From contig CP060222.1 of assembly GCA_023898425.1 (NCBI GenBank), forward strand, positions 900,001 through 932,000: a stretch of 32,000 bases of DNA. The letters run 5' to 3'. Positions 5,272 through 29,272 of this stretch are shown here, piece by piece; the stretch's first letter is position 1; each line of letters opens with the position of its first letter. Below the pieces are notes generated by a model. The model made no database searches. It saw nothing but the letters and a program-made list of their open reading frames with translations, and was not told the DNA's origin. This DNA comes from Candidatus Saccharimonadota bacterium (GTDB taxonomy: Bacteria > Patescibacteriota > Patescibacteriia > 2-12-FULL-60-25). The position numbers and the translations under genes were made by a program.

Positions 5272-8200
5272 TTAGAATTCAGCTGGAGGCGCAGCATCCC
5301 AATTTTCTTCTTCATTTGCTGCTGGCGTTGGACGTGTGCGGAAGTGCTCTGGTTTTGGCGAGCTGTCTTCGAGACGTTCACCGTTTTTAAGCAATTCGAC
5401 ATCAAGACCTAAGCCCTTCAACTCACGAACGAGAACGTTAAAGGATTCTGGCACATTCACCTTTTTAATTGGCTCACCTTTGATAATTGCTTCGTAGGCT
5501 TTTGAACGTCCAGGCACATCATCAGATTTAATCGTCAAAATTTCTTGAAGCGTATGTGCAGCACCGTAGGCTTCGAGCGCCCACACTTCCATTTCACCAA
5601 AGCGCTGACCACCAAATTGCGCCTTACCACCAAGAGGTTGTTGCGTAATCAATGAGTATGGACCGATAGAACGTTGGTGAATCTTGTCTTCAACCATATG
5701 GTTGAGTTTCAACATATAGACCATACCAACCGTTGGATCATGATCATATTTTTCACCGGTACGACCATCATAAAGAGGGATTTGACCGTCTTCTGGGAAG
5801 CCGGCGCGAACAAGCTCTTCACGAATCGTTTCTTCTGGAACACCGTCAAACACTGGCGTTGCCACCATATATCCGAGAGCATTTGCTGCTAGACCAAGAT
5901 GCGTTTCGAGCACCTGACCCAAGTTCATACGAGAAACAACACCAAGCGGCGAAAGAATAATGTCGACAGGAGTACCGTCCTCAAGGAAAGGCATATCTTC
6001 GACCTTAACGATACGAGAGATAACACCCTTGTTACCGTGACGACCTGCGAGCTTATCACCAACTTGAATCTTACGAAGATCTGCAACCGAGACAACGATT
6101 TGTCGTAAAACACCTGGCTGCAATTTGTCACCGTTATCGCGTGAGAAGACTTTTACATCAACCACTTTGCCTTTTTCGCCGTGCTCAAGATACATAGAAG
6201 AATCGCGAACATCGCGTGCCTTCTCACCAAAAATAGCACGAAGAAGTTTTTCTTCTGCAGATAGATCCGTCTCACCCTTTGGCGTGATTTTACCAACAAG
6301 AATATCACCGGATTTTACTTCTGCACCGACGCGCACAATACCGTGCTCGTCTAAGTGGCGGAATTTTTCTTCTGAAACGTTTGGAATATCAGACGTCACA
6401 ACTTCTTCGCCAAGCTTTGTATCACGTACGTCTAAGGTGTGATGCTCAATGTGGATCGAGGTAAAACGATCTTCATGAACAAGACGCTCAGACAAAATAA
6501 TAGCATCTTCATAGTTATAACCATCCCATGACAAGAACGTCACGAGAAGATTTTGACCAAGAGCGAGCTCACCATGTTGTACGGATGTACCATCAGCGAG
6601 AACTTCACCAGCATAAATCTTTTGTCCTTTGTTTACCGTCGGACGGAAGTTTAAACACGTGGAGTGGTTAGAGCGTTGGAACTTTGCGAGTTCATAACGA
6701 CGAATAGCGCCGTCCTCACCCTGCAATTCAACCAAGTTACCCGAGACACCAACAATCAAACCATCGACAGGAGCGATGATGGCATGACCTGCATCAATAG
6801 CCACACGTCGTTCGACACCCGTACCAACAATTGGAGCATCAGGCTTGATACAAGGAACCGCCTGACGTTGCATGTTTGTACCCATGAGAGCGCGGTGACC
6901 ATCATCATGTTCAACAAACGGAATGAGTGACGTACCAACTGAAAGAATATGCTTGGATGAAACATCAACATAATCAATCTCGTGAACATCAACAATCGTA
7001 GGCTCGCCGTTTTTACGCGCAGGCGTACGTTCGTGCATAAACTTACCATTCTTATCGATAGCTGTTGTTGCAGGTGCTGTTGTACCGCGTTCTTCTGTGA
7101 ACGCGTTCAAGTAAATAATTTCACTTGTTACGGTAGGCACCACTGGCAATTTATCAATCGAAACTTTTGTGAGTTTTTCTGCAAGTTTCTTGTCGACTTC
7201 TTCCCCTGCTTTTGCCACTTTTTTGCCTTCGCCGTCATTAATGTCAACGCGCAATACTTCGCCGATAGCATCTTTACCGTCATTTTTTGCCCAGTTTTTT
7301 ACAAGACGGTATGGCGCTTCGATAAAGCCATATTCGTTGATACGCGAATAACTCGCCATGTGACCTACGAGACCGATGTTTGGACCTTCAGGTGAAGCGA
7401 TCGGACAAATACGGCCATAGTGAGTGCGATGCACATCACGAACATCAAAGCCCGCACGTTCACGCGTAAGACCACCAGGACCCATCGCGGACAAACGACG
7501 CTTATGCTCAAGTTCCGCAAGTGGATTTGTTTGCTCCATGAATTGCGAAAGCTGTGAACTCATGAAGAATTCGCGAATCGCACCAATCACCGGACGTGCA
7601 TTAATCAACTTTGCTGGGTTGATATCGTTCATGTCCATGGTGGACATACGATCTTTGACGATACGCTCCATACGAGCAAGACCAATGCGGAAACGACTTT
7701 GAACAAGCTCACCTACCGCACGCACACGACGATTACCCAAGTGATCAATATCATCGGCTTCGTCTTGTGAGACATTGAGCTGAATCAATTCGCGCAACAA
7801 AGCAATTACGTCTTCTTTTGAAAGAATGCGGTTTTCTTCTTTTGCAACAAAGTCATGCTCAGCATTGGCATTAAAGCGCTTGTTGAATTTGTAACGACCT
7901 ACTGCAGACAAATCATAACGATCGAAGTTAAAGAACATCGAGTGAATGAGTTGTTTTGCATTTTCTGCCGTTGCGAGATCACCAGGTCTGATACGTTTGT
8001 AGACTTCGATATACCCTTCTTCTTCGCTAGAAGAAACGTCTTTTGCCAAGGTAGAATCAACGTATTTGTTTAATGGATGGATATCAACATCTTGAAGAGC
8101 CTCGCGGATCTGCTCATCTGAACCCAAACCAAAAGCACGCAAAAGCGCTGTTGCTGCAACTTTACGTTTACGATCGATTTTTACCCAAAGCACATTGTTT

Positions 8201-8736
8201 GCATCGGTCTCAAATTCGAGCCAAGCACCACGTGAAGGGATAATTTTTGCACCATAGTAACGACGGCTATGCATGGTCTCAGCGGTGAAAAAGACACCGG
8301 CGGAGCGCACAAGCTGTGTGATCACCACACGTTCGATACCGTTCACGATAAAGGTACCGCGATCGGTCATGAGAGGAAGATCTCCAAGGTATACCTCGGA
8401 TTCCTTTTCAAAATTAGAACGCTTATTTGTAAGACGAAGTTTTACACGGATAGGAGCCTCGTAGTTAACGTGTTTCTCCTTAGATGTTTTCTCGTCAAAC
8501 TTTGGTTCGTCGAAATAATAATCAACGAAGGACAATTCGAGATCACGACCGATAAAATCTTTTATCGGTGAGATTTCTTTAAATAAGTCGCGGATACCTT
8601 CTTCAAGGAACCAACGATAGGAGGTTTTTTGCACCTCAATCAAATCTGGCAAGGCCATGGCATCGCGTGCCGCCGTAAAATAACGGCGATCGCGGTCCTT
8701 TGGCTCTTGTCGCTTAAACGACATCGCTTGTGACAT
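5272..8736 (-). CDS. rpoB: DNA-directed RNA polymerase subunit beta
   Basis: 1154-aa ORF with motifs GDKLAGRHGNKGVIS, NMQRQAVP and YNYEDAI. It lies 26 nt upstream of rpoC. Confidence 0.97.
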   Translation of the reverse strand: MSQAMSFKRQEPKDRDRRYFTAARDAMALPDLIEVQKTSYRWFLEEGIRDLFKEISPIKDFIGRDLELSFVDYYFDEPKFDEKTSKEKHVNYEAPIRVKLRLTNKRSNFEKESEVYLGDLPLMTDRGTFIVNGIERVVITQLVRSAGVFFTAETMHSRRYYGAKIIPSRGAWLEFETDANNVLWVKIDRKRKVAATALLRAFGLGSDEQIREALQDVDIHPLNKYVDSTLAKDVSSSEEEGYIEVYKRIRPGDLATAENAKQLIHSMFFNFDRYDLSAVGRYKFNKRFNANAEHDFVAKEENRILSKEDVIALLRELIQLNVSQDEADDIDHLGNRRVRAVGELVQSRFRIGLARMERIVKDRMSTMDMNDINPAKLINARPVIGAIREFFMSSQLSQFMEQTNPLAELEHKRRLSAMGPGGLTRERAGFDVRDVHRTHYGRICPIASPEGPNIGLVGHMASYSRINEYGFIEAPYRLVKNWAKNDGKDAIGEVLRVDINDGEGKKVAKAGEEVDKKLAEKLTKVSIDKLPVVPTVTSEIIYLNAFTEERGTTAPATTAIDKNGKFMHERTPARKNGEPTIVDVHEIDYVDVSSKHILSVGTSLIPFVEHDDGHRALMGTNMQRQAVPCIKPDAPIVGTGVERRVAIDAGHAIIAPVDGLIVGVSGNLVELQGEDGAIRRYELAKFQRSNHSTCLNFRPTVNKGQKIYAGEVLADGTSVQHGELALGQNLLVTFLSWDGYNYEDAIILSERLVHEDRFTSIHIEHHTLDVRDTKLGEEVVTSDIPNVSEEKFRHLDEHGIVRVGAEVKSGDILVGKITPKGETDLSAEEKLLRAIFGEKARDVRDSSMYLEHGEKGKVVDVKVFSRDNGDKLQPGVLRQIVVSVADLRKIQVGDKLAGRHGNKGVISRIVKVEDMPFLEDGTPVDIILSPLGVVSRMNLGQVLETHLGLAANALGYMVATPVFDGVPEETIREELVRAGFPEDGQIPLYDGRTGEKYDHDPTVGMVYMLKLNHMVEDKIHQRSIGPYSLITQQPLGGKAQFGGQRFGEMEVWALEAYGAAHTLQEILTIKSDDVPGRSKAYEAIIKGEPIKKVNVPESFNVLVRELKGLGLDVELLKNGERLEDSSPKPEHFRTRPTPAANEEENWDAAPPAEF

Positions 8737-8878
8737 GGGGCGATGAAAAATTTAACGAATTTGCTTACTACAGTGGGGCCGTCGAAAAAAGACAAAGCCG
8801 CCAGTGCTGACGGACGTCACTGTAAAATAGAGCAAACCGTATCTTCTGATTTAGGTGAAATCACACCGGAAAGCAGCC

Positions 8879-8918
8879 AAAATATCAAAACGCCTCCCAA
8901 CGGGGAAAGGTTGGGAGG
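8879..8918 (-). terminator. terminator-like hairpin inside the rpoB leader (attenuator, or 3' end of a small RNA)
   Basis: On the minus strand, CCTCCCAA-CCTTTCCCCG-TTGGGAGG is followed by CGTTTTGATATTTT. It sits about 145 nt downstream of the candidate promoter at 9031-9059 and about 140 nt upstream of the rpoB ATG. Confidence 0.45.
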
Positions 8919-9030: not shown

Positions 9031-9059
9031 ATATTAACAAGAAAGAACCGTCAAGTCAA
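9031..9059 (-). promoter_or_regulatory. sigma70-type promoter reading toward rpoB
   Basis: Minus strand: TTGACT (9059-9054), 17-nt spacer, TAATAT (9036-9031). Confidence 0.5.
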
Positions 9060-9218: not shown

Positions 9219-9247
9219 TTGACAATAATACTGTTTTAGTATATATT
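9219..9247 (+). promoter_or_regulatory. near-consensus sigma70 promoter P1
   Basis: TTGACA (9219-9224), 17-nt spacer, TATATT (9242-9247). Confidence 0.6.
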
Positions 9248-9310
9248 ATGCAGGCACATTTCTCATTTTCGGCGAATTGCCAGAAAGAAGGTCCCGTGGA
9301 GGAATTGATC

Positions 9311-9985
9311 ATGAAGAACGGTGTGTGGAAGCACAAGCCCCCGACCGAGAAGATCCCCAAGCAGACCATCCGGCATCACGCCACCTTCCGTCGACTGGAT
9401 ATCTGGGAGACCCGTGAAAACGAACGCAACGCGTTCAACGGAGATTCGGCCGAACTTCAGCGGAAAATGATCCGCTTGGAAGATCAGCTCGAGGCTGGAT
9501 ACATGGACGAAGAGTCCATCCTCAAGGCGCTCGAGCGCATCACTCGTGAGATCAAAGATCTGATCAACGAGGGCAATCGGATCCTCTCGAACCAGAGAGG
9601 CTACCTTGGTCTCGCGCTGGAACTGGATACCATCTACATCCAACTCCAGACATGGAAGACCTGGATCAAGCCCCTGAAACGCCAACTGCGCAAGCAGAAG
9701 GCCACGGTCTTCATCATGAAGATGAAAAAGGCAGAACGCGACCTCGACGTGTTCGACCCCACTCACGCCCCGCAGATGTGGCGCGCCAAGCTGATGCTTC
9801 CGCGCAAGCCGGGTCGCTGCGGGTACAAGAGCGCGCACTACTTCATCCCGGGCAAGCACAAGCACACCCGGGTTGAGCGGTCCTTCGTCGAAGAAAGCCG
9901 CTACGGCAAGAAGGGCCAGCGCTACAGCGCGGCTCGCAAAGAGCGCGAAGACGAGCGCATGACGCTCATCAGCCAAATGGCCTAG
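9311..9985 (+). CDS. orphan protein A (224 aa), coiled-coil-like middle, basic C-terminal module shared with protein B
   Basis: GGAGGA SD at 9298-9303, 7 nt before the ATG at 9311. GC3-biased frame. The track start at 9197 lies in the AT-rich promoter, so I moved the start. Confidence 0.6.
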   Translation: MKNGVWKHKPPTEKIPKQTIRHHATFRRLDIWETRENERNAFNGDSAELQRKMIRLEDQLEAGYMDEESILKALERITREIKDLINEGNRILSNQRGYLGLALELDTIYIQLQTWKTWIKPLKRQLRKQKATVFIMKMKKAERDLDVFDPTHAPQMWRAKLMLPRKPGRCGYKSAHYFIPGKHKHTRVERSFVEESRYGKKGQRYSAARKEREDERMTLISQMA

Positions 9986-10003
9986 CACTTTTCAACACTG
10001 CTG

Positions 10004-10046
10004 AATCCCCCACTCACTGCTGAGTTGGGGGATTTTGCGTTTTTTA
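10004..10046 (+). terminator. intrinsic terminator after protein A gene
   Basis: AATCCCCCACTCA / TGAGTTGGGGGATT stem followed by TTGCGTTTTTT. Confidence 0.65.
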
Positions 10047-10073
10047 GACACTGTGTTTATGACAATTAAAATA

Positions 10074-10102
10074 TTGACAAATTATTATAAATAAGCTATC
10101 TT
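10074..10102 (+). promoter_or_regulatory. near-consensus sigma70 promoter P2
   Basis: TTGACA (10074-10079), 17-nt AT-only spacer, TATCTT (10097-10102). Confidence 0.55.
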
Positions 10103-10123
10103 GTACCGGTACATTTTAGGCGA

Positions 10124-10633
10124 ATGTCGCCAGATTGGAGTCTAATGTCGAGCAACGAGAAGTCCTGGAACGACATGTCGATGGATGAGCCCCTCGATGA
10201 CGCGGGGTATAACCCCAGTCTATTCGAGGACTTCGACTTCGATGATTTCGACGATCATCATGAGTACGATGATCATTTCGAAGATACCTTCAGGGATGCC
10301 TTCGACGAGTTCGAAGACTACCCCAAGGAGACCGCCTCCTACATCGACAAGCTCGAGGAGGAGCGCAAGGACTGGGAGTTCGAGGTCGAAGCATGGGCAG
10401 AACAGCTCGAACTTCTCGATCCCACTCTGGATCCGAAGATGTGGCGCGCACGCGAAGGCTGTGGCACCAATTGCTTCAACTTTGTGCCTGGCACGGGCAA
10501 GAAGCTTGACGTCCAGTCGTGCCGCAACTACGGTCATCGCTCCGGCTACAAGCCCCGTCTCCGCAATAAGGAGCGGATGCGTGAACGCGAGATCTGGCGC
10601 GAACGTCAGCTCGAACAGGCCTTCAGCGCCTGA
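10124..10633 (+). CDS. orphan protein B (169 aa), extremely acidic N-terminal half, C-terminal module paralogous to protein A
   Basis: GC3-biased ORF. An alternative start at ATG 10145 is preceded by GGAG. Shares DPTxxPxMWRA and CGxxxxxF(I/V)PGxxK motifs with protein A. Confidence 0.6.
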   Translation: MSPDWSLMSSNEKSWNDMSMDEPLDDAGYNPSLFEDFDFDDFDDHHEYDDHFEDTFRDAFDEFEDYPKETASYIDKLEEERKDWEFEVEAWAEQLELLDPTLDPKMWRAREGCGTNCFNFVPGTGKKLDVQSCRNYGHRSGYKPRLRNKERMREREIWRERQLEQAFSA

Positions 10634-10643
10634 CACTACTACA

Positions 10644-10697
10644 AGCCCCGCCTCTAACCACATTCTGTGGCTTAGAGGCGGGGCTATTTGTGTTGTG
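10644..10697 (+). terminator. intrinsic terminator after protein B gene
   Basis: 14-bp perfect stem AGCCCCGCCTCTAA / TTAGAGGCGGGGCT followed by ATTTGTGTTGTG. Confidence 0.6.
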
Positions 10698-10709
10698 TAA
10701 ACAATCATC

Positions 10710-10738
10710 TTGACAGAATGTCGATAATAGGCTATATT
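10710..10738 (+). promoter_or_regulatory. near-consensus sigma70 promoter P3
   Basis: TTGACA (10710-10715), 17-nt spacer, TATATT (10733-10738). Confidence 0.55.
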
Positions 10739-10771
10739 CTCACCGTGTTTACCCACGTCGCCGATGGCGAA

Positions 10772-11293
10772 ATGGTCGGTCAGGTTTCGCGCCTGGCTCA
10801 ATACAAGAACCTTTTGCTCCGTGATCAACTCACGGACGATCCCAAGCTTCGGATGTTGGGCGAGCTCGCACTCGTGACCGACATCACGAAGAAGCTCTTC
10901 GCAGAAAAGGGTGCCAATCCACCCTTGAAACTGCTCTACACTCTTCTATCGTTCACGTCTGAGATGGACGAGAATGATGAAGACTGTTGGGTGCAGTGGG
11001 AGGAACTCCCCGAAGAGAAGCGTCTTCTCACGGAACTCCGTTGGGATCTCGAGGCCATGGAGCCCAACTCGTGCTACTGCGCGCGTTGCCGTGGTGTCGA
11101 GGAAGACGACGTCCCGCCCCTCAAAGTCTTCACGCCTACCGCAGACATGCGCTTGGCGGCGAAGAGGGAGAAAACGCTCCGCAATGGCGGGCGGCGGGTA
11201 CGGCGGAGCACGAATGAGGACGAGGCTGAAGAGCTGACTCCGAAGCGTAGCCTTCGCGACTTTCGTCGCGGAGCCGACTCCGTTTCCTGGTGA
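10772..11293 (+). CDS. orphan protein C (173 aa from ATG 10772; start uncertain)
   Basis: GC3-biased ORF downstream of P3. The track start at 10688 lies upstream of the promoter. Contains a CYCARC cysteine cluster and a basic tail. No family recognised. Confidence 0.5.
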   Translation: MVGQVSRLAQYKNLLLRDQLTDDPKLRMLGELALVTDITKKLFAEKGANPPLKLLYTLLSFTSEMDENDEDCWVQWEELPEEKRLLTELRWDLEAMEPNSCYCARCRGVEEDDVPPLKVFTPTADMRLAAKREKTLRNGGRRVRRSTNEDEAEELTPKRSLRDFRRGADSVSW

Positions 11294-11300
11294 GAAACTG

Positions 11301-11352
11301 ACCCTGTCCCAAACTGTGATCTTCATGGTTTGGGACGGGGTCTTGTAATTTC
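11301..11352 (+). terminator. intrinsic terminator after protein C gene
   Basis: ACCCTGTCCCAAAC / GTTTGGGACGGGGT stem followed by CTTGTAATTTCT. Confidence 0.55.
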
Positions 11353-11386
11353 TGCATACTTTCTCCCTCGATGCCCCCTACCCCTG

Positions 11387-11416
11387 CCCCTTCTACCTTT
11401 GTGGAGGGGGTTTTAT
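11387..11416 (+). terminator. second terminator-like hairpin
   Basis: CCCCTTC / GGAGGGG stem followed by GTTTTATGG. Confidence 0.35.
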
Positions 11417-11438
11417 GGTAAAAATAAACCCTATATAC

Positions 11439-11467
11439 TTGATTTTTTGTCAAAAATATGCTATACT
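11439..11467 (+). promoter_or_regulatory. sigma70 promoter P4a
   Basis: TTGATT (11439-11444), 17-nt spacer, TATACT (11462-11467). Confidence 0.45.
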
Positions 11468-11583: not shown

Positions 11584-11612
11584 TTGACAGTTTATACGGT
11601 ACATGGTATAGT
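11584..11612 (+). promoter_or_regulatory. near-consensus sigma70 promoter P4b with extended -10
   Basis: TTGACA (11584-11589), 17-nt spacer ending in TGG, TATAGT (11607-11612). Confidence 0.6.
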
Positions 11613-11618
11613 AATACG

Positions 11619-11763
11619 TCGAGGATGAAACAGCCTTACATTTAAAGAGCTAGTCACAGTGGAGAGCTTGGACAGCAATGAACGAACTTACCGGCCATTA
11701 GGGCTAGGTGTAGCGATTATTGTTTTGCTCAATTCACTTGTGACGTTATCAACGTCATTTTTT
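11619..11763 (+). ncRNA. candidate small RNA of about 145 nt (P4b to first terminator)
   Basis: Predicted TSS is about 7 nt after the -10. No ORF. The region ends in a TGACGTT-ATC-AACGTCA hairpin plus TTTTTT (11741-11763). Confidence 0.35.
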
Positions 11764-12247
11764 GTTGTCTTGATCGTTTTGGAGGAGGCAAGCAGATGAA
11801 CGATGTGAGAATCCGGTTTCGACTGGGATCTCTCATCTGCAATCTGTTACGGATTCAACCGCTTCGGCGGATTTGAGCCACTTCTCGTTGGATCTTTATC
11901 CGATGAGTCGCCGCCTCTAAAACGATCATCGCAACAGAGAAAGACGGGTGGAGAAGAACCTCACAGGCAACCGAACATGGTGCGTCTGTGAGCGGTAGGC
12001 AAAATTAGACTCGGTGGTTTCGACTGCCAACTCTAACATGTAGCCCACCACACGCAGGCAATGCCCTCGGGTATTCGCCCGCCTCTTCTTCAACCGTCTT
12101 TCTCTCGTTCACCATCATCCTGCTTTCATTTCTATCTCTGATCCTTTTGCTCCACGAATGCGTTCGTGCCAGCCAAGAGTTGATCGAGAAAGAAATGAGA
12201 GCGGGACGTGCGATTTTGCACCTTACAGTCCGCTCCAAAGGCAAAAG
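11764..12247 (+). ncRNA. long GC-balanced non-coding stretch; candidate structured RNA or 5' leader of the downstream operon
   Basis: No plus-strand track ORF of 60 codons or more starts between 10988 and 12146. The sampled line at 11881 is about 48% G+C, unlike the AT-rich spacers. Helices: cUUCGg hairpin 11859-11870, CTCACAG/CTGTGAG 11960-11992, GGTGG/CCACC 12013-12049, and a hairpin at 12057-12079. Confidence 0.35.
11796..11876 (+). CDS. 26-codon sORF (MNDVRIRFRLGSLICNLLRIQPLRRI) with strong SD; possible leader peptide or small toxin-like peptide
   Basis: GGAGGAGG at 11781-11788 lies 7 nt before the ATG at 11796. Too short to judge coding potential. Confidence 0.25.
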   Translation: MNDVRIRFRLGSLICNLLRIQPLRRI

Positions 12248-12481
12248 ATGTCCAAGAAGATCACCCTTTCGATCTGTGCCTTCTTCTTCACCGTCGTCGG
12301 CGCGATGCACTTCATCGATGTGCCGAACACCAACGAGGAGGAGATCGCGGCGATCAAGAACGGTCGCATCTGCCACCGCGAGAGGTGCACCTTCCTCAAC
12401 GGGCCCTTCACGGGATACGTGAGGTACCAAGTGGATGAAACAGGGTTCATCTATGTCTCTAACGGGACAGCGATGAACTGA
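12248..12481 (+). CDS. small membrane or secreted protein (77 aa)
   Basis: ATG at 12248. N-terminal hydrophobic segment KKITLSICAFFFTVVGAMHFI. GC3-biased frame. Weak SD (AAAGG). Confidence 0.5.
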   Translation: MSKKITLSICAFFFTVVGAMHFIDVPNTNEEEIAAIKNGRICHRERCTFLNGPFTGYVRYQVDETGFIYVSNGTAMN

Positions 12482-12484
12482 GAG

Positions 12485-12623
12485 TCTGAATCCGACATCA
12501 CGAATACTCGTGCTCTGTCGGACTCCCAATCTTGATCAGAACGAATGTTGTGACCAAGACATGGAGTTACAATCCTGCTCTCACTTTTTTGACCGACATC
12601 GCTCGGTACAAAAAGCGAGAGCG
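12485..12623 (+). repeat. intergenic repeat copy R1 (139 nt)
   Basis: Near-identical to 13551-13688. Begins with the hairpin TCCGACA-T-CACGA-ATAC-TCGTG-CTC-TGTCGGA immediately after the upstream stop codon. Confidence 0.85.
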
Positions 12624-12671
12624 GGAACCCCAAGTACAAATTCGTACATTCACACCCGTTCAAAGGAAACT

Positions 12672-13544
12672 ATGACCAAAATCAATTTCGTGCTCGCGTC
12701 TAACCACACCAACCTCGCCACTGCCATCGAAGGCAAGGCGAGCGCCACGGTGGAGGCTGAGTTCGGCGACATCACCGTCGCTGGCTCGGTGCTCACCATG
12801 GCGCATCACGGCGTCAATGCGGGTAACCGCGCGCCGTGCGCGTACCCCAACGGGTGCGCGGAAGGCGTCGAGGTGGTGGGTTTGTCCCACTTCGACCTCG
12901 ACACCCTCGGTGGGTGTGCGGCCGTCATCGGTCGCAAGCCGGAGGCCGAGAGCTTCTGGATTCTCTCCGAGTTCGTGGACCTTAATGGTCCGCACAAGCT
13001 CGGTGTGAGCGGCGCGTCCGACGAGGACATCCGCCGCCTCAACGCCTTCTGGGCGTGGAGCGAAAAGAACCGAGTGTTCGCCAACCGCGACGGCTCGGTG
13101 TCCGACGTGACCGACAAGGTCATCGAGGGCATCGAAGCGCTCGAGAGGATCCTCGCCGACGATGAGCAGATGCTCGTCGCGGGCGACGAGTTCAAGGCGA
13201 AGGGCGACAAGCTCAACGCCGAGAGCTTCGTCGAGTACTACGAGGATCTCCTCGTCCGAGTTTCGCCGAGCTTCACCAACCACCTCTACGTCGCCCCCGA
13301 CGGAAAGGTGGCCAAGGCCGTCATCGCCTTCAACACCCTCAACGGCTCGATCACGATCTCGTTCGCGGATGCGCCCAAGGGCACGAACGCGCGCGACATC
13401 GTGCAGAAGCTGTGGGGGCCCGAAGCTGGCGGTCACGCTGGCATCGCTGGCAGCCCGCGTGACAAGCGGTTGAACCTCGATGACCTGAGCGAAGCGCTCA
13501 GCGCGACGATGCTCGCGCTCGACGAAATGGACAACATTTCGTAG
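12672..13544 (+). CDS. divergent DHH/DHHA1-like phosphoesterase (290 aa), assignment tentative
   Basis: SD AAAGGAAA before the ATG at 12672. SHFDLDTLGG resembles DHH motif I (H..D.D..G). C-terminal GGHAGIAGSP resembles the DHHA1 GGGH..A.G motif of NrnA/RecJ-type enzymes. A canonical DHH triad is not obvious. Confidence 0.45.
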   Translation: MTKINFVLASNHTNLATAIEGKASATVEAEFGDITVAGSVLTMAHHGVNAGNRAPCAYPNGCAEGVEVVGLSHFDLDTLGGCAAVIGRKPEAESFWILSEFVDLNGPHKLGVSGASDEDIRRLNAFWAWSEKNRVFANRDGSVSDVTDKVIEGIEALERILADDEQMLVAGDEFKAKGDKLNAESFVEYYEDLLVRVSPSFTNHLYVAPDGKVAKAVIAFNTLNGSITISFADAPKGTNARDIVQKLWGPEAGGHAGIAGSPRDKRLNLDDLSEALSATMLALDEMDNIS

Positions 13545-13550
13545 AGCAAC

Positions 13551-13688
13551 CTGGATCCGACATCACGAATACTCGTGCTCTGTCGGACTCCCAATCTTGA
13601 TCAGAACGAATGTTGTGACCAAGACATGGAGATAAATCCTGCTCTCACTTTTTTGACCGACATTGCTCGGTACAAAAAGCGAGAGCGG
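13551..13688 (+). repeat. intergenic repeat copy R2 (138 nt)
   Basis: Differs from R1 by one A/G, one C/T, and TTACAA versus ATAAA (a 1-nt indel). Confidence 0.85.
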
Positions 13689-13727
13689 TACGTGCAATCA
13701 CGCACCTTAAAACACGCTCCGGAGATT

Positions 13728-13959: not shown

Positions 13960-14000
13960 CTGGATCCGACATCACGAATTCTCGTGCTCTCTCGGACTCC
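13960..14000 (+). repeat. partial repeat copy R3 (hairpin module only, 41 nt)
   Basis: CTGGATCCGACATCACGAATTCTCGTGCTCTCTCGGACTCC matches the first 41 nt of R1/R2 with 2-3 substitutions. Confidence 0.75.
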
Positions 14001-14062
14001 TCCTCTTGTTTATGACATGTCGTCGTAAGCAAGAACGGGAGATATCCCAGAAAGGTTAAGCC

Positions 14063-14514: not shown

Positions 14515-15123
14515 ATGAGCATTGCCATCGCAATAGCCATCGTTCTCATGGAGGAATTCAGTGTGATGATTGGTCAACAGCTGATCATCCAAAGCATGAT
14601 CGACCGCATCGACAAGGTGCGTCGCCATGCTCTCAATCACATTAACGAGCCGAAAATTCTGCTCGATGAAACGTGGTTGATCCCAACGCATGAGTTGTGC
14701 GACGTGCTAGGCGTAGACTCACTGGAAGAGATCCTCTCTTCCAAAATCCGAGGTATTGCGCTCGCACTCGCAGGAAAGAAAGAGTATCATCCTCGTTCGA
14801 TCGCGGGTGGTGCTGAGCAACTCATGGAGTTGCTCCGACCGGCGGCTGATGAAGAGCAGGCGGAAGATGAACGTAAATTACGCAATCGGATTCTCGGTCT
14901 CGCCGCGCGCTATCTGTCAGCATCCGTTGAAGAACGGACAAAGATACTGATTTCTTTGGAGGGCAGTCGAACGCGGGCGCTTAGTGACACTGAGGAGGTA
15001 ACCGAACTCGTACGACTCAGGATCAACGCTGATCACGAGTATGAGCGAGTCTCAAAACAACTCCGTAAACTTCAGGTAAAAAACGGATCACTCCTGAACC
15101 GGAATGTGATCCTCGATGCCTGA
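14515..15123 (+). CDS. orphan protein (about 200 aa; start ambiguous among 14515, 14548 and 14563/14566)
   Basis: Long ORF, helical and charged sequence. GGAGGA at 14550-14555 favours the 14563/14566 starts. No family recognised. Confidence 0.45.
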   Translation: MSIAIAIAIVLMEEFSVMIGQQLIIQSMIDRIDKVRRHALNHINEPKILLDETWLIPTHELCDVLGVDSLEEILSSKIRGIALALAGKKEYHPRSIAGGAEQLMELLRPAADEEQAEDERKLRNRILGLAARYLSASVEERTKILISLEGSRTRALSDTEEVTELVRLRINADHEYERVSKQLRKLQVKNGSLLNRNVILDA

Positions 15124-15231
15124 GTGAACAAGATCTCACGCTCCACACTCATCTCTACCGAGAAGAGGTACGGAGACTCAAAAACAATTCGCTCGAGAAA
15201 TACGAAATCAAGAGCAGCAACAGGAGGCCTC

Positions 15232-15408
15232 ATGAGCTACGTTAGCGCCGCGTTCACCGTGGCATACAATCGCACCTGTGAAGATCTGACCGAAGAAACG
15301 GTCAAGATCGACACAGCACGTCTCGCTGAAAAGCTCGAAGAGAGCGGCGAGTACGACATGGCCATTCGGCTGCGTCGTTCGTCTCGGCCCCCTGGGCCGA
15401 GCAACTAG
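15232..15408 (+). CDS. orphan protein (58 aa)
   Basis: AGGAGG at 15222-15227 lies 4 nt before the ATG at 15232. The track ORF starts earlier, at GTG 15124. Confidence 0.4.
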   Translation: MSYVSAAFTVAYNRTCEDLTEETVKIDTARLAEKLEESGEYDMAIRLRRSSRPPGPSN

Positions 15409-15668: not shown

Positions 15669-16865
15669 ATGTCCCTCAACTTCAGCATCACCAGGAATCC
15701 CAATATCCTTTCGGCGGCAGCCGGTCGTGAGGTGAGTCAGGAGGAGACGAATGACATCGTCGCTCCCCTGGACCACCACTGCGGAGCTCAGTACGAACTT
15801 CGCAACAACCGCCTTTTGCGGCGGCTACAGCTCCAGATCTTCGCCTGCTTGTTGCTGGCGAAGGAAGAGATGTTCGACATGAGCGATGAGCTCATCGAAA
15901 GCAACGGCCTCGACCCCGTTCTTGCGGGGTTCATGAAGGGGCAGGTCCTCAACCAGCGCAGCACGAAGTTGCTCACCATGGTCGACAACCAGGGCGAGCT
16001 CTTCACGCCCCCCATGTTCGTGATGAACATGAACGACCTGACGAAGCCCGGTCGCAAGGATCGTCCGGTCCGCCGTGTGTGGGTGGACGCTCACAACTTC
16101 GATCGCGTCACGGCCAGCAATGGCCAGGTCTCGTCGCGACCAAACCGCGTTGGTACGTTCATGCAACGCGTCAACACGCACGGCACCTTCGAGAACGGTG
16201 GTGAGCGCGACGCGCTCATCATGGGCTTCAGGCCTGAGTTCGAAGAGCGTCGTGACACGGCCGTCATCACGAGCAAGGATCAGGTTCTGAAGAGCTACAT
16301 CCTCCTGGTCGTCGGCGCCAACCTCGATCTGCTCATGCAGATCGTGGACATCGCCGGCGACAGCGTCGCGCCGATGTTCTTCGGTGGCGAGGTAGACCCC
16401 AAGATGGCCTACTTCGGTCCCGTGGAGGTCCAAGACACGAAGGTGTCGACCGACCCGAAGCTCAAGATGGACGAGATCCGCGAGAAGGTGAAGAGCACGA
16501 AGCTGACTCACACCATGGCTCAGGACCTCGAGGGCGTCGTGATCGACGACGAAGACGAGTCGCCCGAGGATAGCTCAGACGACGTGAGCGACGACCTCAG
16601 CGCCAGTGATGGCAACGAGGACGAGACCTCCGATGCCTCCTCGACCGAGGAGAGCGATGGTGACATCGCTCCGCCGGTCGCCAACGAGAAGCGGAGCGAC
16701 GCTCCGCTGACGGCGAAGCAGAAGCGGATGCTCGAGAACAGCGAAGAAGGCAAGACGCCCTCCACTCCTCCCGCCACGACGAAGAAGCCCAAGAAGGCTT
16801 CGACGCCTAGGCAGAAGAAGGGGCTCGAAGACCTGGAAAACGTTCAGCTTCCCAGCGCCGAGTGA
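15669..16865 (+). CDS. orphan protein (398 aa) with acidic Ser/Asp-rich tail followed by a Lys-rich end
   Basis: GC3-biased ORF preceded by a purine-rich leader, GAAGAAAAAGAAAGAGAAAAAAATG. No family recognised. Confidence 0.6.
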   Translation: MSLNFSITRNPNILSAAAGREVSQEETNDIVAPLDHHCGAQYELRNNRLLRRLQLQIFACLLLAKEEMFDMSDELIESNGLDPVLAGFMKGQVLNQRSTKLLTMVDNQGELFTPPMFVMNMNDLTKPGRKDRPVRRVWVDAHNFDRVTASNGQVSSRPNRVGTFMQRVNTHGTFENGGERDALIMGFRPEFEERRDTAVITSKDQVLKSYILLVVGANLDLLMQIVDIAGDSVAPMFFGGEVDPKMAYFGPVEVQDTKVSTDPKLKMDEIREKVKSTKLTHTMAQDLEGVVIDDEDESPEDSSDDVSDDLSASDGNEDETSDASSTEESDGDIAPPVANEKRSDAPLTAKQKRMLENSEEGKTPSTPPATTKKPKKASTPRQKKGLEDLENVQLPSAE

Positions 16866-28629: not shown

Positions 28630-28870
28630 CTATGGCACTGGATCGAATCCACCTTCATTCCAAGGATGGCAACGCGTAATACGTTTTGCTCCTAACCACG
28701 CACCTTTAAAAAACCGTATTTTCGAATCGCTTGTTCGGTGTATTCAGAGCAAGTTGGATGAAATCTACAGGTACGATTTCTTATCACATGACGAAGTGGG
28801 CCATGATCGGGTGATAGCGTTTTTGATAAAGTTTAATAAGCATTACACCCATCCATGCAAGTGGACTCAT
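28630..28870 (-). pseudogene. yidD: yidD (membrane protein insertion efficiency factor) split over three reading frames
   Basis: MSPLAWMGVMLIKLYQK is in frame a (the same frame as rnpA). [22 protein letters not shown] is in frame b. [24 protein letters not shown] is in frame c. The second shift is at T TTA AAG (28704-28710). Confidence 0.6.
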
Positions 28871-29272
28871 ACGTCTTTTTATAAACGACTGATGTTTTGC
28901 GCTTTGCTTTGATGTTTTTCTTGGCGTTGGCGGTAATGCAAGCGCTGCTGGAATCTTTTCGAAGGCGTGCAAGATAGATTGTTTGAGCACGGCAAAATCA
29001 ACATCAAGAACATTGGCTTTGATCATAAACATGAGATCAAGTTTTTCTGGCCAGTTTGTTTGCAGATCACGCAAAGCTGCACGCATGCGACGTTTTACGC
29101 GATTACGTTTATTGGCGCGCTTAAATACTTTTGTAGATGCAACAAAACCAATCTTCGTTGTCTCTGATGGGCGAAAGCGTAAGGTAAATTCTTGCGCATA
29201 CACAACACGCCCTTTTTGCGATAAGAGCGCGAAATCACGTTTACGACGTAAGCGGTCTGGTTGAGCTAGCAT
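28784..29272 (-). CDS. rnpA: ribonuclease P protein component; ORF runs on into the yidD N-terminus
   Basis: RNR-type motif KRANKRNRVKRRMR. There is no stop codon between the RnpA domain and the in-frame yidD start at 28870. Confidence 0.8.
   Translation of the reverse strand: MLAQPDRLRRKRDFALLSQKGRVVYAQEFTLRFRPSETTKIGFVASTKVFKRANKRNRVKRRMRAALRDLQTNWPEKLDLMFMIKANVLDVDFAVLKQSILHAFEKIPAALALPPTPRKTSKQSAKHQSFIKRRMSPLAWMGVMLIKLYQKRYHPIMAHFVM

Follow-up and report, generated by a model that had tools for sequence, protein, structure and literature searches.

A strain-variable array of three predicted single-gene units flanked by rpoB and a conserved structured RNA in an Uhrbacteria-type bacterium

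Results

Three Small Genes in the Spacer Between rpoB and a Structured RNA

Three cassettes, A, B and C, lie in the spacer that separates rpoB from a divergently oriented, conserved structured RNA in a 32,000-nt stretch of contig CP060222.1 (assembly GCA_023898425.1, positions 900,001 to 932,000 of the forward strand). This whole stretch is referred to below as the window, and coordinates are those of the window unless preceded by the label of another locus. Each cassette consists of a promoter, a single open reading frame (ORF) and a GC hairpin, and all three such units described in the initial annotation are present at 9219–11352 on the + strand, as seen from a consensus scan, the ORF list and folding. 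We estimate at roughly 55% the probability that they constitute a chromosomal, recombination-shuffled accessory array of three monocistronic units filling the rpoB-to-RNA spacer; the docking function proposed in the Discussion is less likely than not. The host is an uncultured Uhrbacteria-type bacterium of the Candidate Phyla Radiation (CPR) with a genome of ~1 Mb, the closest rpoB genes being those of Candidatus Uhrbacteria and Patescibacteria.

The conserved left flank of the array is the divergently transcribed rpoB (5272..8736, –; a 1154-aa ORF with Pfam RNA_pol_Rpb2 domains), preceded by a promoter-like site at 9031..9059 (–; TTGACT-17-TAATAT with an extended TG), and the right boundary is formed by the non-coding RNA at 11619..12106 (+). 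The rpoB-side loci of related strains and lineages, labeled L001, L012, etc., were compared; within the genus-level clade, the N-terminal 300 aa of RpoB are 94–96% identical among lineages. The locus is chromosomal, its synteny is kept in every relative fetched, and it carries the protein module described below in every genome of the clade.

Predicted Promoters, Terminators and Start Codons

The slot-1 promoter of cassette A (9219..9247, +; TTGACA-17-TATATT, 11/12 match) is followed by ORF A (9311..9985, +; 224 aa, net charge +18, GC content of third codon positions (GC3) 0.80), with GGAGG 7 nt upstream of the ATG, and by a terminator at 9999..10046 (+), where a GC stem (–24.6 kcal/mol, z –5.3) runs into the U-run UUUUGCGUUUUUU. 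Cassette B is composed of a promoter (10074..10102, +; TTGACA-17-TATCTT, 10/12 match), ORF B (10145..10633, +; 162 aa, net charge –21, GC3 0.74) and a terminator-like hairpin (10633..10700, +; –42 kcal/mol, z –8.7). Cassette C has the same arrangement, with a promoter at 10710..10738 (+; TTGACA-17-TATATT, 11/12 match), ORF C at 10745..11293 (+; 182 aa from GTG, or 173 aa from the ATG at 10772; GC3 0.70), and a terminator-like hairpin with a 20-bp stem at 11300..11352 (+; –35 kcal/mol, z –8.65). A second hairpin past cassette C is located at 11386..11420 (+) plus UUUUAUGG (–21.7 kcal/mol, z –3.6).

All three units thus have the makeup of a sigma-70 monocistronic unit, that is, –35 and –10 boxes at 17 nt and a downstream GC hairpin with a U tract, the canonical uninterrupted U-run being found at the cassette A hairpin only, while the U-rich tails of B and C are interrupted. 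The surrounding 7 kb contain 19 promoter-like sites versus 5.6 ± 2.3 in shuffles, with the cassette promoters among the six best. On these features the three units are predicted to be independently promoted and terminated single-gene units. The 5′ untranslated regions (5′UTRs) of A and B have no hairpins of note, their leaders folding no better than shuffles. As the GTG start of ORF C would fall 6 nt past the –10 box, this ORF is probably translated from a leaderless mRNA; the VFT.. start is conserved in four lineages, and the L018 protein has no internal Met.

Coding Status and Distribution of A, B and C

Judging from composition and substitution patterns, A, B and C should be regarded as real genes. 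The cassette ORFs have GC of 0.56–0.58, and in the annotated frame GC3 is 0.70–0.80 versus 0.36–0.42 at second codon positions; in the flanking core genes GC3 is just 0.33–0.39 (0.39 in rpoB). The ratio of nonsynonymous to synonymous substitution rates (dN/dS), calculated with orthologues from other metagenomes, is 0.20 for A (versus L012), 0.38 and 0.31 for B (versus L012 and L011, respectively) and 0.22 for C, compared to 0.005 for rpoB, so that selection on the three genes is purifying but relaxed. Reading frames are intact across lineages at protein identities of 30–70%.

The genes were initially described as a private family, and for A and B this is borne out; relatives of all three proteins occur solely in Uhrbacteria-type CPR bacteria of a single genus-level clade. 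The sole match of ORF A among 5.8 billion proteins is itself; a word search with ORF B yields one diverged relative, and its homologues are P0023, P0024 and P0025 only. An exhaustive HMMER scan with a profile of the A/B module identifies four clusters among 1.84 billion representatives, and the family of ORF C comprises five clusters, none with a Pfam domain.

No match to a known family was found in the libraries searched. Pfam, NCBIfam, PADLOC and PHROG scans with A, B, C and seven downstream island proteins produce nothing above noise. The lone PHROG match, of A residues 28–145 to the phrog_95 integrase, is borderline (E = 7e-4) and falls on the predicted long helices of A; we read it as coiled-coil composition and reject the integrase homology. 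IMG/VR viral contigs, INPHARED phages and PLSDB plasmids have no match to the cassette proteins. A phmmer search of PDB with B has the best E-value of at least 0.4, no BFVD fold matches B, and Foldseek comparison of the A and B models with PDB and BFVD yields generic helical bundles only, with nothing below E = 0.03. A literature search retrieved nothing on the locus or its RNA.

Two Paralogues With a Common C-Terminal Module

A and B are tandem paralogues with a common C-terminal module, the similarity noticed initially being significant in a formal comparison (BLASTP E = 1e-5 over 45 residues). A hidden Markov model (HMM) built from B-type proteins without A retrieves A at 1.9e-4 from 17,925 ORF translations, along with the A-like proteins of L018 (1.5e-7) and L013 (3.4e-19). 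The module of A (9743..9985, +) reads LDVFDPTHAPQMWRAK ... IPGKHK ... basic helix, and that of B (10406..10633, +), LELLDPTLDPKMWRAR ... VPGTGKK ... basic helix; the similarity is also visible at the DNA level as the direct repeat D5, with 9743–9786 and 10406–10449 being 77% identical. The module spans ~80 aa and opens with LDP[TH]xxPxxW[RK] (LDPTxDPxxWRA in A and B), which a linker of variable sequence connects to a PGxGK-like turn and the basic helix at the C-terminus. Alignment of eight sequences (A, B and six relatives) contains invariant D, P, W, K and R columns.

The N-terminal heads of the two proteins are unrelated, that of A being a basic helical bundle and that of B a hyper-acidic segment. 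The original count for the latter, 22 D/E and 8 F in a stretch of 49 residues, is exact, and all peptides quoted in the initial annotation are present. The net charge of B is –21 overall, with the last ~60 residues net positive. In the AlphaFold2 model of A, which like that of B is of low confidence (pLDDT 59), helices occupy residues 24–146, followed by a low-confidence stretch at 152–206 and the C-terminal helix, and A is thus predicted to be a helical bundle with a disordered module. For B (pLDDT 61, pTM 0.23) the acidic region is modeled with low confidence; its acidic head, and most of B, are predicted to be disordered, and such a model is compatible with folding on a partner.

The charge pattern of B had been likened to that of DNA-mimic proteins. 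The acidity is real and is conserved in B homologues; the phenylalanine pattern is not conserved, the head is predicted to be disordered, and no similarity to the fold of Ocr or ArdA is detected. As modeled, B looks like a disordered polyanion more than a folded mimic of the Ocr or ArdA type.

Protein C, for which a weak echo of the module had been reported, does not belong with A and B: its similarity to them is not significant either in BLASTP (E ≥ 25) or in hhalign (E = 0.26 over 11 columns), and by these values we ruled out its being a diverged A/B member. C is best described, from its sequence, as a separate family with its own conserved basic tail. The cysteines do not persist as a conserved feature, being absent from the B homologues P0023, P0024 and P0025; a zinc site was rejected, as they are unconserved in these homologues and in the L012 version of C.

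Conserved Slots With Exchanged Content

The cassette content differs between lineages: it is A-B-C in the window and L012, B′-X in L011, B and A-like in L013, B-C-DUF559 in L014 and L015, B only in L017, and A-like, C and DUF559 in L018. The slot-1 promoter and 5′UTR are conserved in six lineages, be the following ORF A-like or B-like, and are near-identical in L014, where B follows, and L018, where an A-like gene does. Similarly, the promoter past the B terminator is kept ahead of C in L012 and L014, and L011 has part of it ahead of another ORF, X. Hence the units behave as slots, where the promoter, 5′UTR and terminator are kept and the ORF behind is duplicated, replaced or recombined.

The promoter and 5′UTR of B resemble slot 1 (ACATTT..GGCGAAT..GCCAGA), which points to an origin of A and B by duplication of the whole unit. 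Modules and heads also recombine: the A-like protein of L013 (248 aa) bears the module subtype of the L014 B protein.

We observe that the last array slot of some lineages holds a gene of the DUF559/MTES_1575 family (Vsr-like endonuclease), at L014 11443–11802, L015 9150–9509 and L018 7711–8070. These genes have host-like GC3 of 0.43–0.47.

Fast and Mosaic Divergence

The cassettes open an island of orphan genes of ~8 kb (9.2–16.9 kb, + strand; GC 0.50–0.64), whose genes, A, B and C included, have diverged much faster than the core genes. Identity between the window and L014 is 96% for RpoB, 30% for B (BLASTP), 68–70% for C and 47% for g203. Strain-to-strain divergence is moreover mosaic. Compared to L012, the synonymous divergence (dS) is 0.076 for rpoB, 0.029 for A, 0.10 for B, 0.16 for g77 and 0.21 for g398, and rises to 1.3 for g88 and 2.1 for both C and g203. 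Among L001–L003, the 3.25-kb segment 8850–12105 has three variable sites, compared to 103 (101 synonymous) in rpoB plus rpoC.

GC3 of island genes is 0.6–0.9 in every lineage, compared to 0.38–0.61 in core genes of the close clade, and the excess persists in more distant relatives; A, B and C remain at 0.7–0.9 irrespective of the GC3 of the host core. Since divergence is mosaic and GC3 persistently high, these data fit a gene pool that would be exchanged by recombination among related lineages, many of them GC-rich.

Several segments have no detectable DNA homology between strains, namely 12105–12486 and 14792–15322 versus the near-identical strain L001, and 10821–11127 versus L012. They sit between otherwise 98–99.8% identical strains, with adjoining stretches being only 87–92% identical, and indicate allelic replacement inside the island.

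A Conserved Structured RNA at the Right Boundary

The RNA that bounds the array (~490 nt) has 90% mean column identity in seven lineages, including those whose B proteins share only 30–56%, and is by far the best-conserved part of the island. Homology between lineages resumes at ~11448 and stops abruptly at the RNA 3′ end. Two promoter-like sites precede the RNA, at 11439–11467 and 11584–11612 (both +), the second one being TTGACA-17-TATAGT with TG, and equivalents of the pair are found in L013, L014 and L018.

The structure is supported by covariation. RNAalifold applied to the seven lineages predicts 167 pairs, 14 of them compensatory, versus 6.4 ± 1.5 in column-shuffled and 0–2 in slid alignments, and 99% of cells pair, versus ~40% when slid. 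By nhmmer and then a covariance model of the 92-nt core, run on the 80 related loci fetched, the core is identified in 35 of them, always divergent from rpoB and ~0.5–2 kb (mostly 0.5–1.7 kb) upstream of the rpoB start. The covariation score on 42 covariance-model matches is 0.546, compared to 0.155 when shuffled and at most 0.063 when slid, and a MAFFT alignment of 20 sequences has 41 consensus pairs, 28 of them compensatory.

Rfam 15 contains no match to the RNA either at the gathering score or at E ≤ 1–10, and ARAGORN finds no tmRNA; with these negatives, tmRNA, RNase P RNA or an Rfam family were rejected as its identity. The RNA is previously undescribed and has no Rfam family. As rnpA, the gene of the RNase P protein, lies in the window (28787–29272, –), the genome should also encode RNase P RNA; none is detected within the window, and the RNA next to the array does not match RNase P models.

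The start of the full-length RNA would be just ~240–460 nt from rpoB in several distant relatives, which leaves no room for cassettes. As the RNA lies so close to rpoB in these genomes, and in others one small ORF with no detectable relation to the module intervenes, the A/B/C cassettes are lineage-specific occupants of the spacer. The small ORF of distant Uhrbacteria, located between rpoB and the RNA on the – strand, encodes a basic protein of 60–65 aa with GC3 of ~0.9 and a tail ...NRRR or RKRKFKR (L019 9099–9296, L023 9157–9354, L024 9067–9258, L025 9193–9378, L027 9197–9394, L028 9064–9246, all –). These ORFs as ancestors of the module are unsupported (hhalign E = 0.29).

The 5′ part of the RNA (~145 nt) contains a terminator-like hairpin at 11740–11758 followed by a U-run and a competing alternative pairing, with covariation in both, an arrangement reminiscent of an attenuator or riboswitch. 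On the – strand of some loci the RNA core model matches two or three times in tandem, L049 (9289, 8837, 8651), L059 (9395, 8230), L057 (9272, 8898) and L043 (1007, 571), and within the window RNA two UUCG hairpin elements, CCGGTTTCGACTGG and GGTGGTTTCGACTGCC, are alike; together these point to internal domain duplication. The UUCG-containing GGUUUCGACUGG elements are ordinary tetraloop hairpins, in which relatives have UUCG, UACG or GCAA as interchangeable loops. The short ORFs within the RNA were rejected as genes, since neither their length nor their frame, as read from the alignments, is conserved.

Genome Neighborhood and Other Island Elements

The gene order around the array is ruvC, rpoC and rpoB (all on the – strand), then the + strand orphan island, a RodZ-like helix-turn-helix (HTH) gene and ftsK. 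Outside the island, the window is made of housekeeping genes, among them those of RecA, ComEC, trigger factor, YchF and RnpA. The window genes include no integrase or phage gene, and no tRNA or att repeat was found in the window.

The rpoB promoter-like site has equivalents in L013, L014 and L018. Between it (9059–9031) and the rpoB start, the rpoB 5′UTR (8798–8918, –) contains two terminator-like hairpins, 8918–8893 and 8813–8798, which are kept in the same three lineages and probably serve as transcription attenuators. At 8758–8843, in the rpoB 5′UTR region, strain L003 has a cluster of 21 differences.

Downstream of the RNA, an intergenic element of ~140 nt occurs in 98% identical copies at 12486–12626 and 13551–13689 (+), ahead of two island genes, with a partial copy at 13960–14043. 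It opens with a hairpin (CCGACAtCACGA...TCGTG...TGTCGG) directly past the preceding stop codon and may be a shared processing or regulatory element.

A 290-aa orphan (12672–13544, +; GC3 0.87), possibly a diverged phosphoesterase of the DHH type, carries a GGHAGIAG motif and matches DHHA1 weakly (E = 0.008); the window shares it with L001 and L014, and L012 lacks it. The 398-aa orphan that ends the island (15669–16865, +) combines a globular N-terminal part with an acidic stretch rich in S/D/E and a K-rich tail, and has relatives of 27–88% identity in the same clade only. By jackhmmer, the downstream island genes are undetected in distant Uhrbacteria.

Discussion

Proposed Function of the Array

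A mechanism for the recombination-shuffled accessory array can be offered only tentatively. The basic C-terminal module would dock a polyanionic partner, a nucleic acid or ribonucleoprotein and possibly the transcription machinery or the neighboring RNA. This interaction would be modulated by the heads, which can be exchanged, and the disordered acidic head of B would be a polyanion acting within the molecule or as a competitor. The genes turn over rapidly, which suggests a role in some conflict or host-interaction process rather than in housekeeping.

Several observations weigh against the array with this function. The functional part is deduced from the charge pattern, conservation and context, and profile searches of Pfam, NCBIfam and PDB with the module are empty, providing no relative of known function. 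As the RNA has a far wider distribution than the module, the latter cannot be its obligatory partner. Adjacency to rpoB at 94–96% RpoB identity is expected from synteny alone. Finally, high GC3 may have other explanations, e.g., the donor pool or biased gene conversion.

Alternative Explanations

The early or anti-defence gene layout of phages and plasmids, to which the cassettes were initially compared, would make them phage- or plasmid-derived genes, a remnant or cargo, with B as a DNA mimic blocking restriction-modification or DNA-binding defences. Consistent with such an origin are the small genes, each promoted and terminated, the codon usage foreign to the host, presence or absence varying by strain, the 49-residue stretch of B with its 22 D/E and 8 F, and the DUF559 (Vsr-like endonuclease) gene in the array of L014 and L018. 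However, the locus is chromosomal, has housekeeping surroundings, and is syntenic and module-bearing throughout the clade; IMG/VR, INPHARED, PLSDB, PADLOC and BFVD contain no match, and the sole PHROG match is the borderline coiled coil of A versus integrases (E = 7e-4). The window is devoid of integrase, tRNA, att repeat and phage genes, and the mimic part is further weakened by the predicted disorder of most of B, its basic tail and the unconserved F pattern. The proposed analogy is thus not upheld, and we consider a phage or plasmid origin unlikely.

The neighboring genes suggest another possibility, that the cassettes encode accessory factors of RNA polymerase. The C-terminal domain of the Firmicute delta subunit and region 1.1 of sigma-70 are acidic segments acting as nucleic-acid competitors, and by analogy the acidic head of B might compete with nucleic acid on RNA polymerase while the module docks the enzyme encoded next door. 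The combination of an acidic disordered segment with a basic tail, the strong promoters and the fact that the first gene divergent from rpoB–rpoC is always module-bearing in the clade are in line with this, but the latter is uninformative given synteny at 94–96% RpoB identity, more distant Uhrbacteria have no A/B family, such fast divergence is unusual for a core transcription factor, and no homology is found to RpoE/delta or any Pfam family. Taken together, this makes such a role improbable.

A related and more elaborate scheme combines these elements into an exchangeable-head, constant-tail protein system of one CPR lineage, in which the module would dock the adjacent RNA or RNA polymerase and the heads, including the polyanionic nucleic-acid mimic of B, would tune or defend the complex in host or phage conflict. 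We regard it as a long shot; if true, it would represent a new RNA–protein accessory system in natural promoter–terminator expression slots.

The opposite charges of the adjacent A (+18) and B (–21) could also be read as a pair of the toxin–antitoxin type, with A as a nucleic-acid-binding toxin, B as its neutralizer and the common module mediating hetero-association. This is very unlikely, as B occurs without A in L011, L014 and L017, and an A-like gene without B in L018, each gene has its own promoter and terminator with no operon, and there is no toxin–antitoxin signal in PADLOC or Pfam. The last alternative, spurious or decaying ORFs from transferred GC-rich DNA with coincidental promoters and hairpins, might account for the lack of known domains and for the long antisense ORFs that are open too, but is largely refuted: dN/dS is far below 1 for each of the three genes, the annotated frame shows strong GC periodicity at third positions, frames are intact at 30–70% protein identity across lineages, and promoters are conserved.

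Significance

CPR genomes are rich in unannotated genes, and few loci give a handle on them; the rpoB-side array does. Its units are natural insulated expression slots, in which promoters are fixed and ORFs or half-ORFs are swapped. Third-position GC ~40 points above the host core, kept across lineages, makes it a clean case for studying orphan-gene birth, shuffling and exchange in reduced genomes. The modular A/B family offers a defined peptide of ~80 aa for studies of nucleic-acid or RNA polymerase binding, and the structured RNA (~340–490 nt) is probably the more important object at the locus.

Comparison With Known Systems

Like the DNA mimics T7 Ocr and plasmid ArdA, B is small, has dense Asp/Glu interspersed with aromatics and would be expressed from its own strong promoter. 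Unlike them, it is chromosomal and clade-restricted in CPR rather than phage- or plasmid-borne, its acidic part is predicted to be disordered and is fused to a basic tail, and no similarity in sequence or fold is observed; Pfam, NCBIfam, PHROG and PADLOC provide no homology to known mimic families. The delta subunit C-terminal domain and sigma-70 region 1.1 share with B a hyper-acidic, probably disordered segment, and B is small and encoded near RNA polymerase genes, but it has no HARE-HTH or sigma domain, and its family is restricted to one genus-level clade and evolves very fast.

At the level of the locus, the array resembles those of integrons in its fixed chromosomal site, the variable number of exchangeable single-ORF units and content differing between close relatives. 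The window carries no IntI integrase domain, and the repeats found in it are GC-rich terminator hairpins only, with no attC-like family reported; in contrast to integron cassettes, each unit here has its own promoter and terminator, and the regulatory scaffold is kept while the ORF changes. Islands at tRNA and tmRNA genes are similar in that hypervariable, compositionally deviant genes abut a structured RNA gene, homology ends exactly at the RNA 3′ end, and divergence is mosaic. They differ in that the RNA here is neither tRNA nor tmRNA and that A, B and C are on its 5′ (promoter) side, not the 3′ one; the 3′ 24-mer of the RNA occurs once in the window (with up to three mismatches), where no recombinase was found. 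Against this background, the array is a strain-variable accessory island, unusual in its conserved promoter and terminator slots and in its extreme and persistent GC3 excess.

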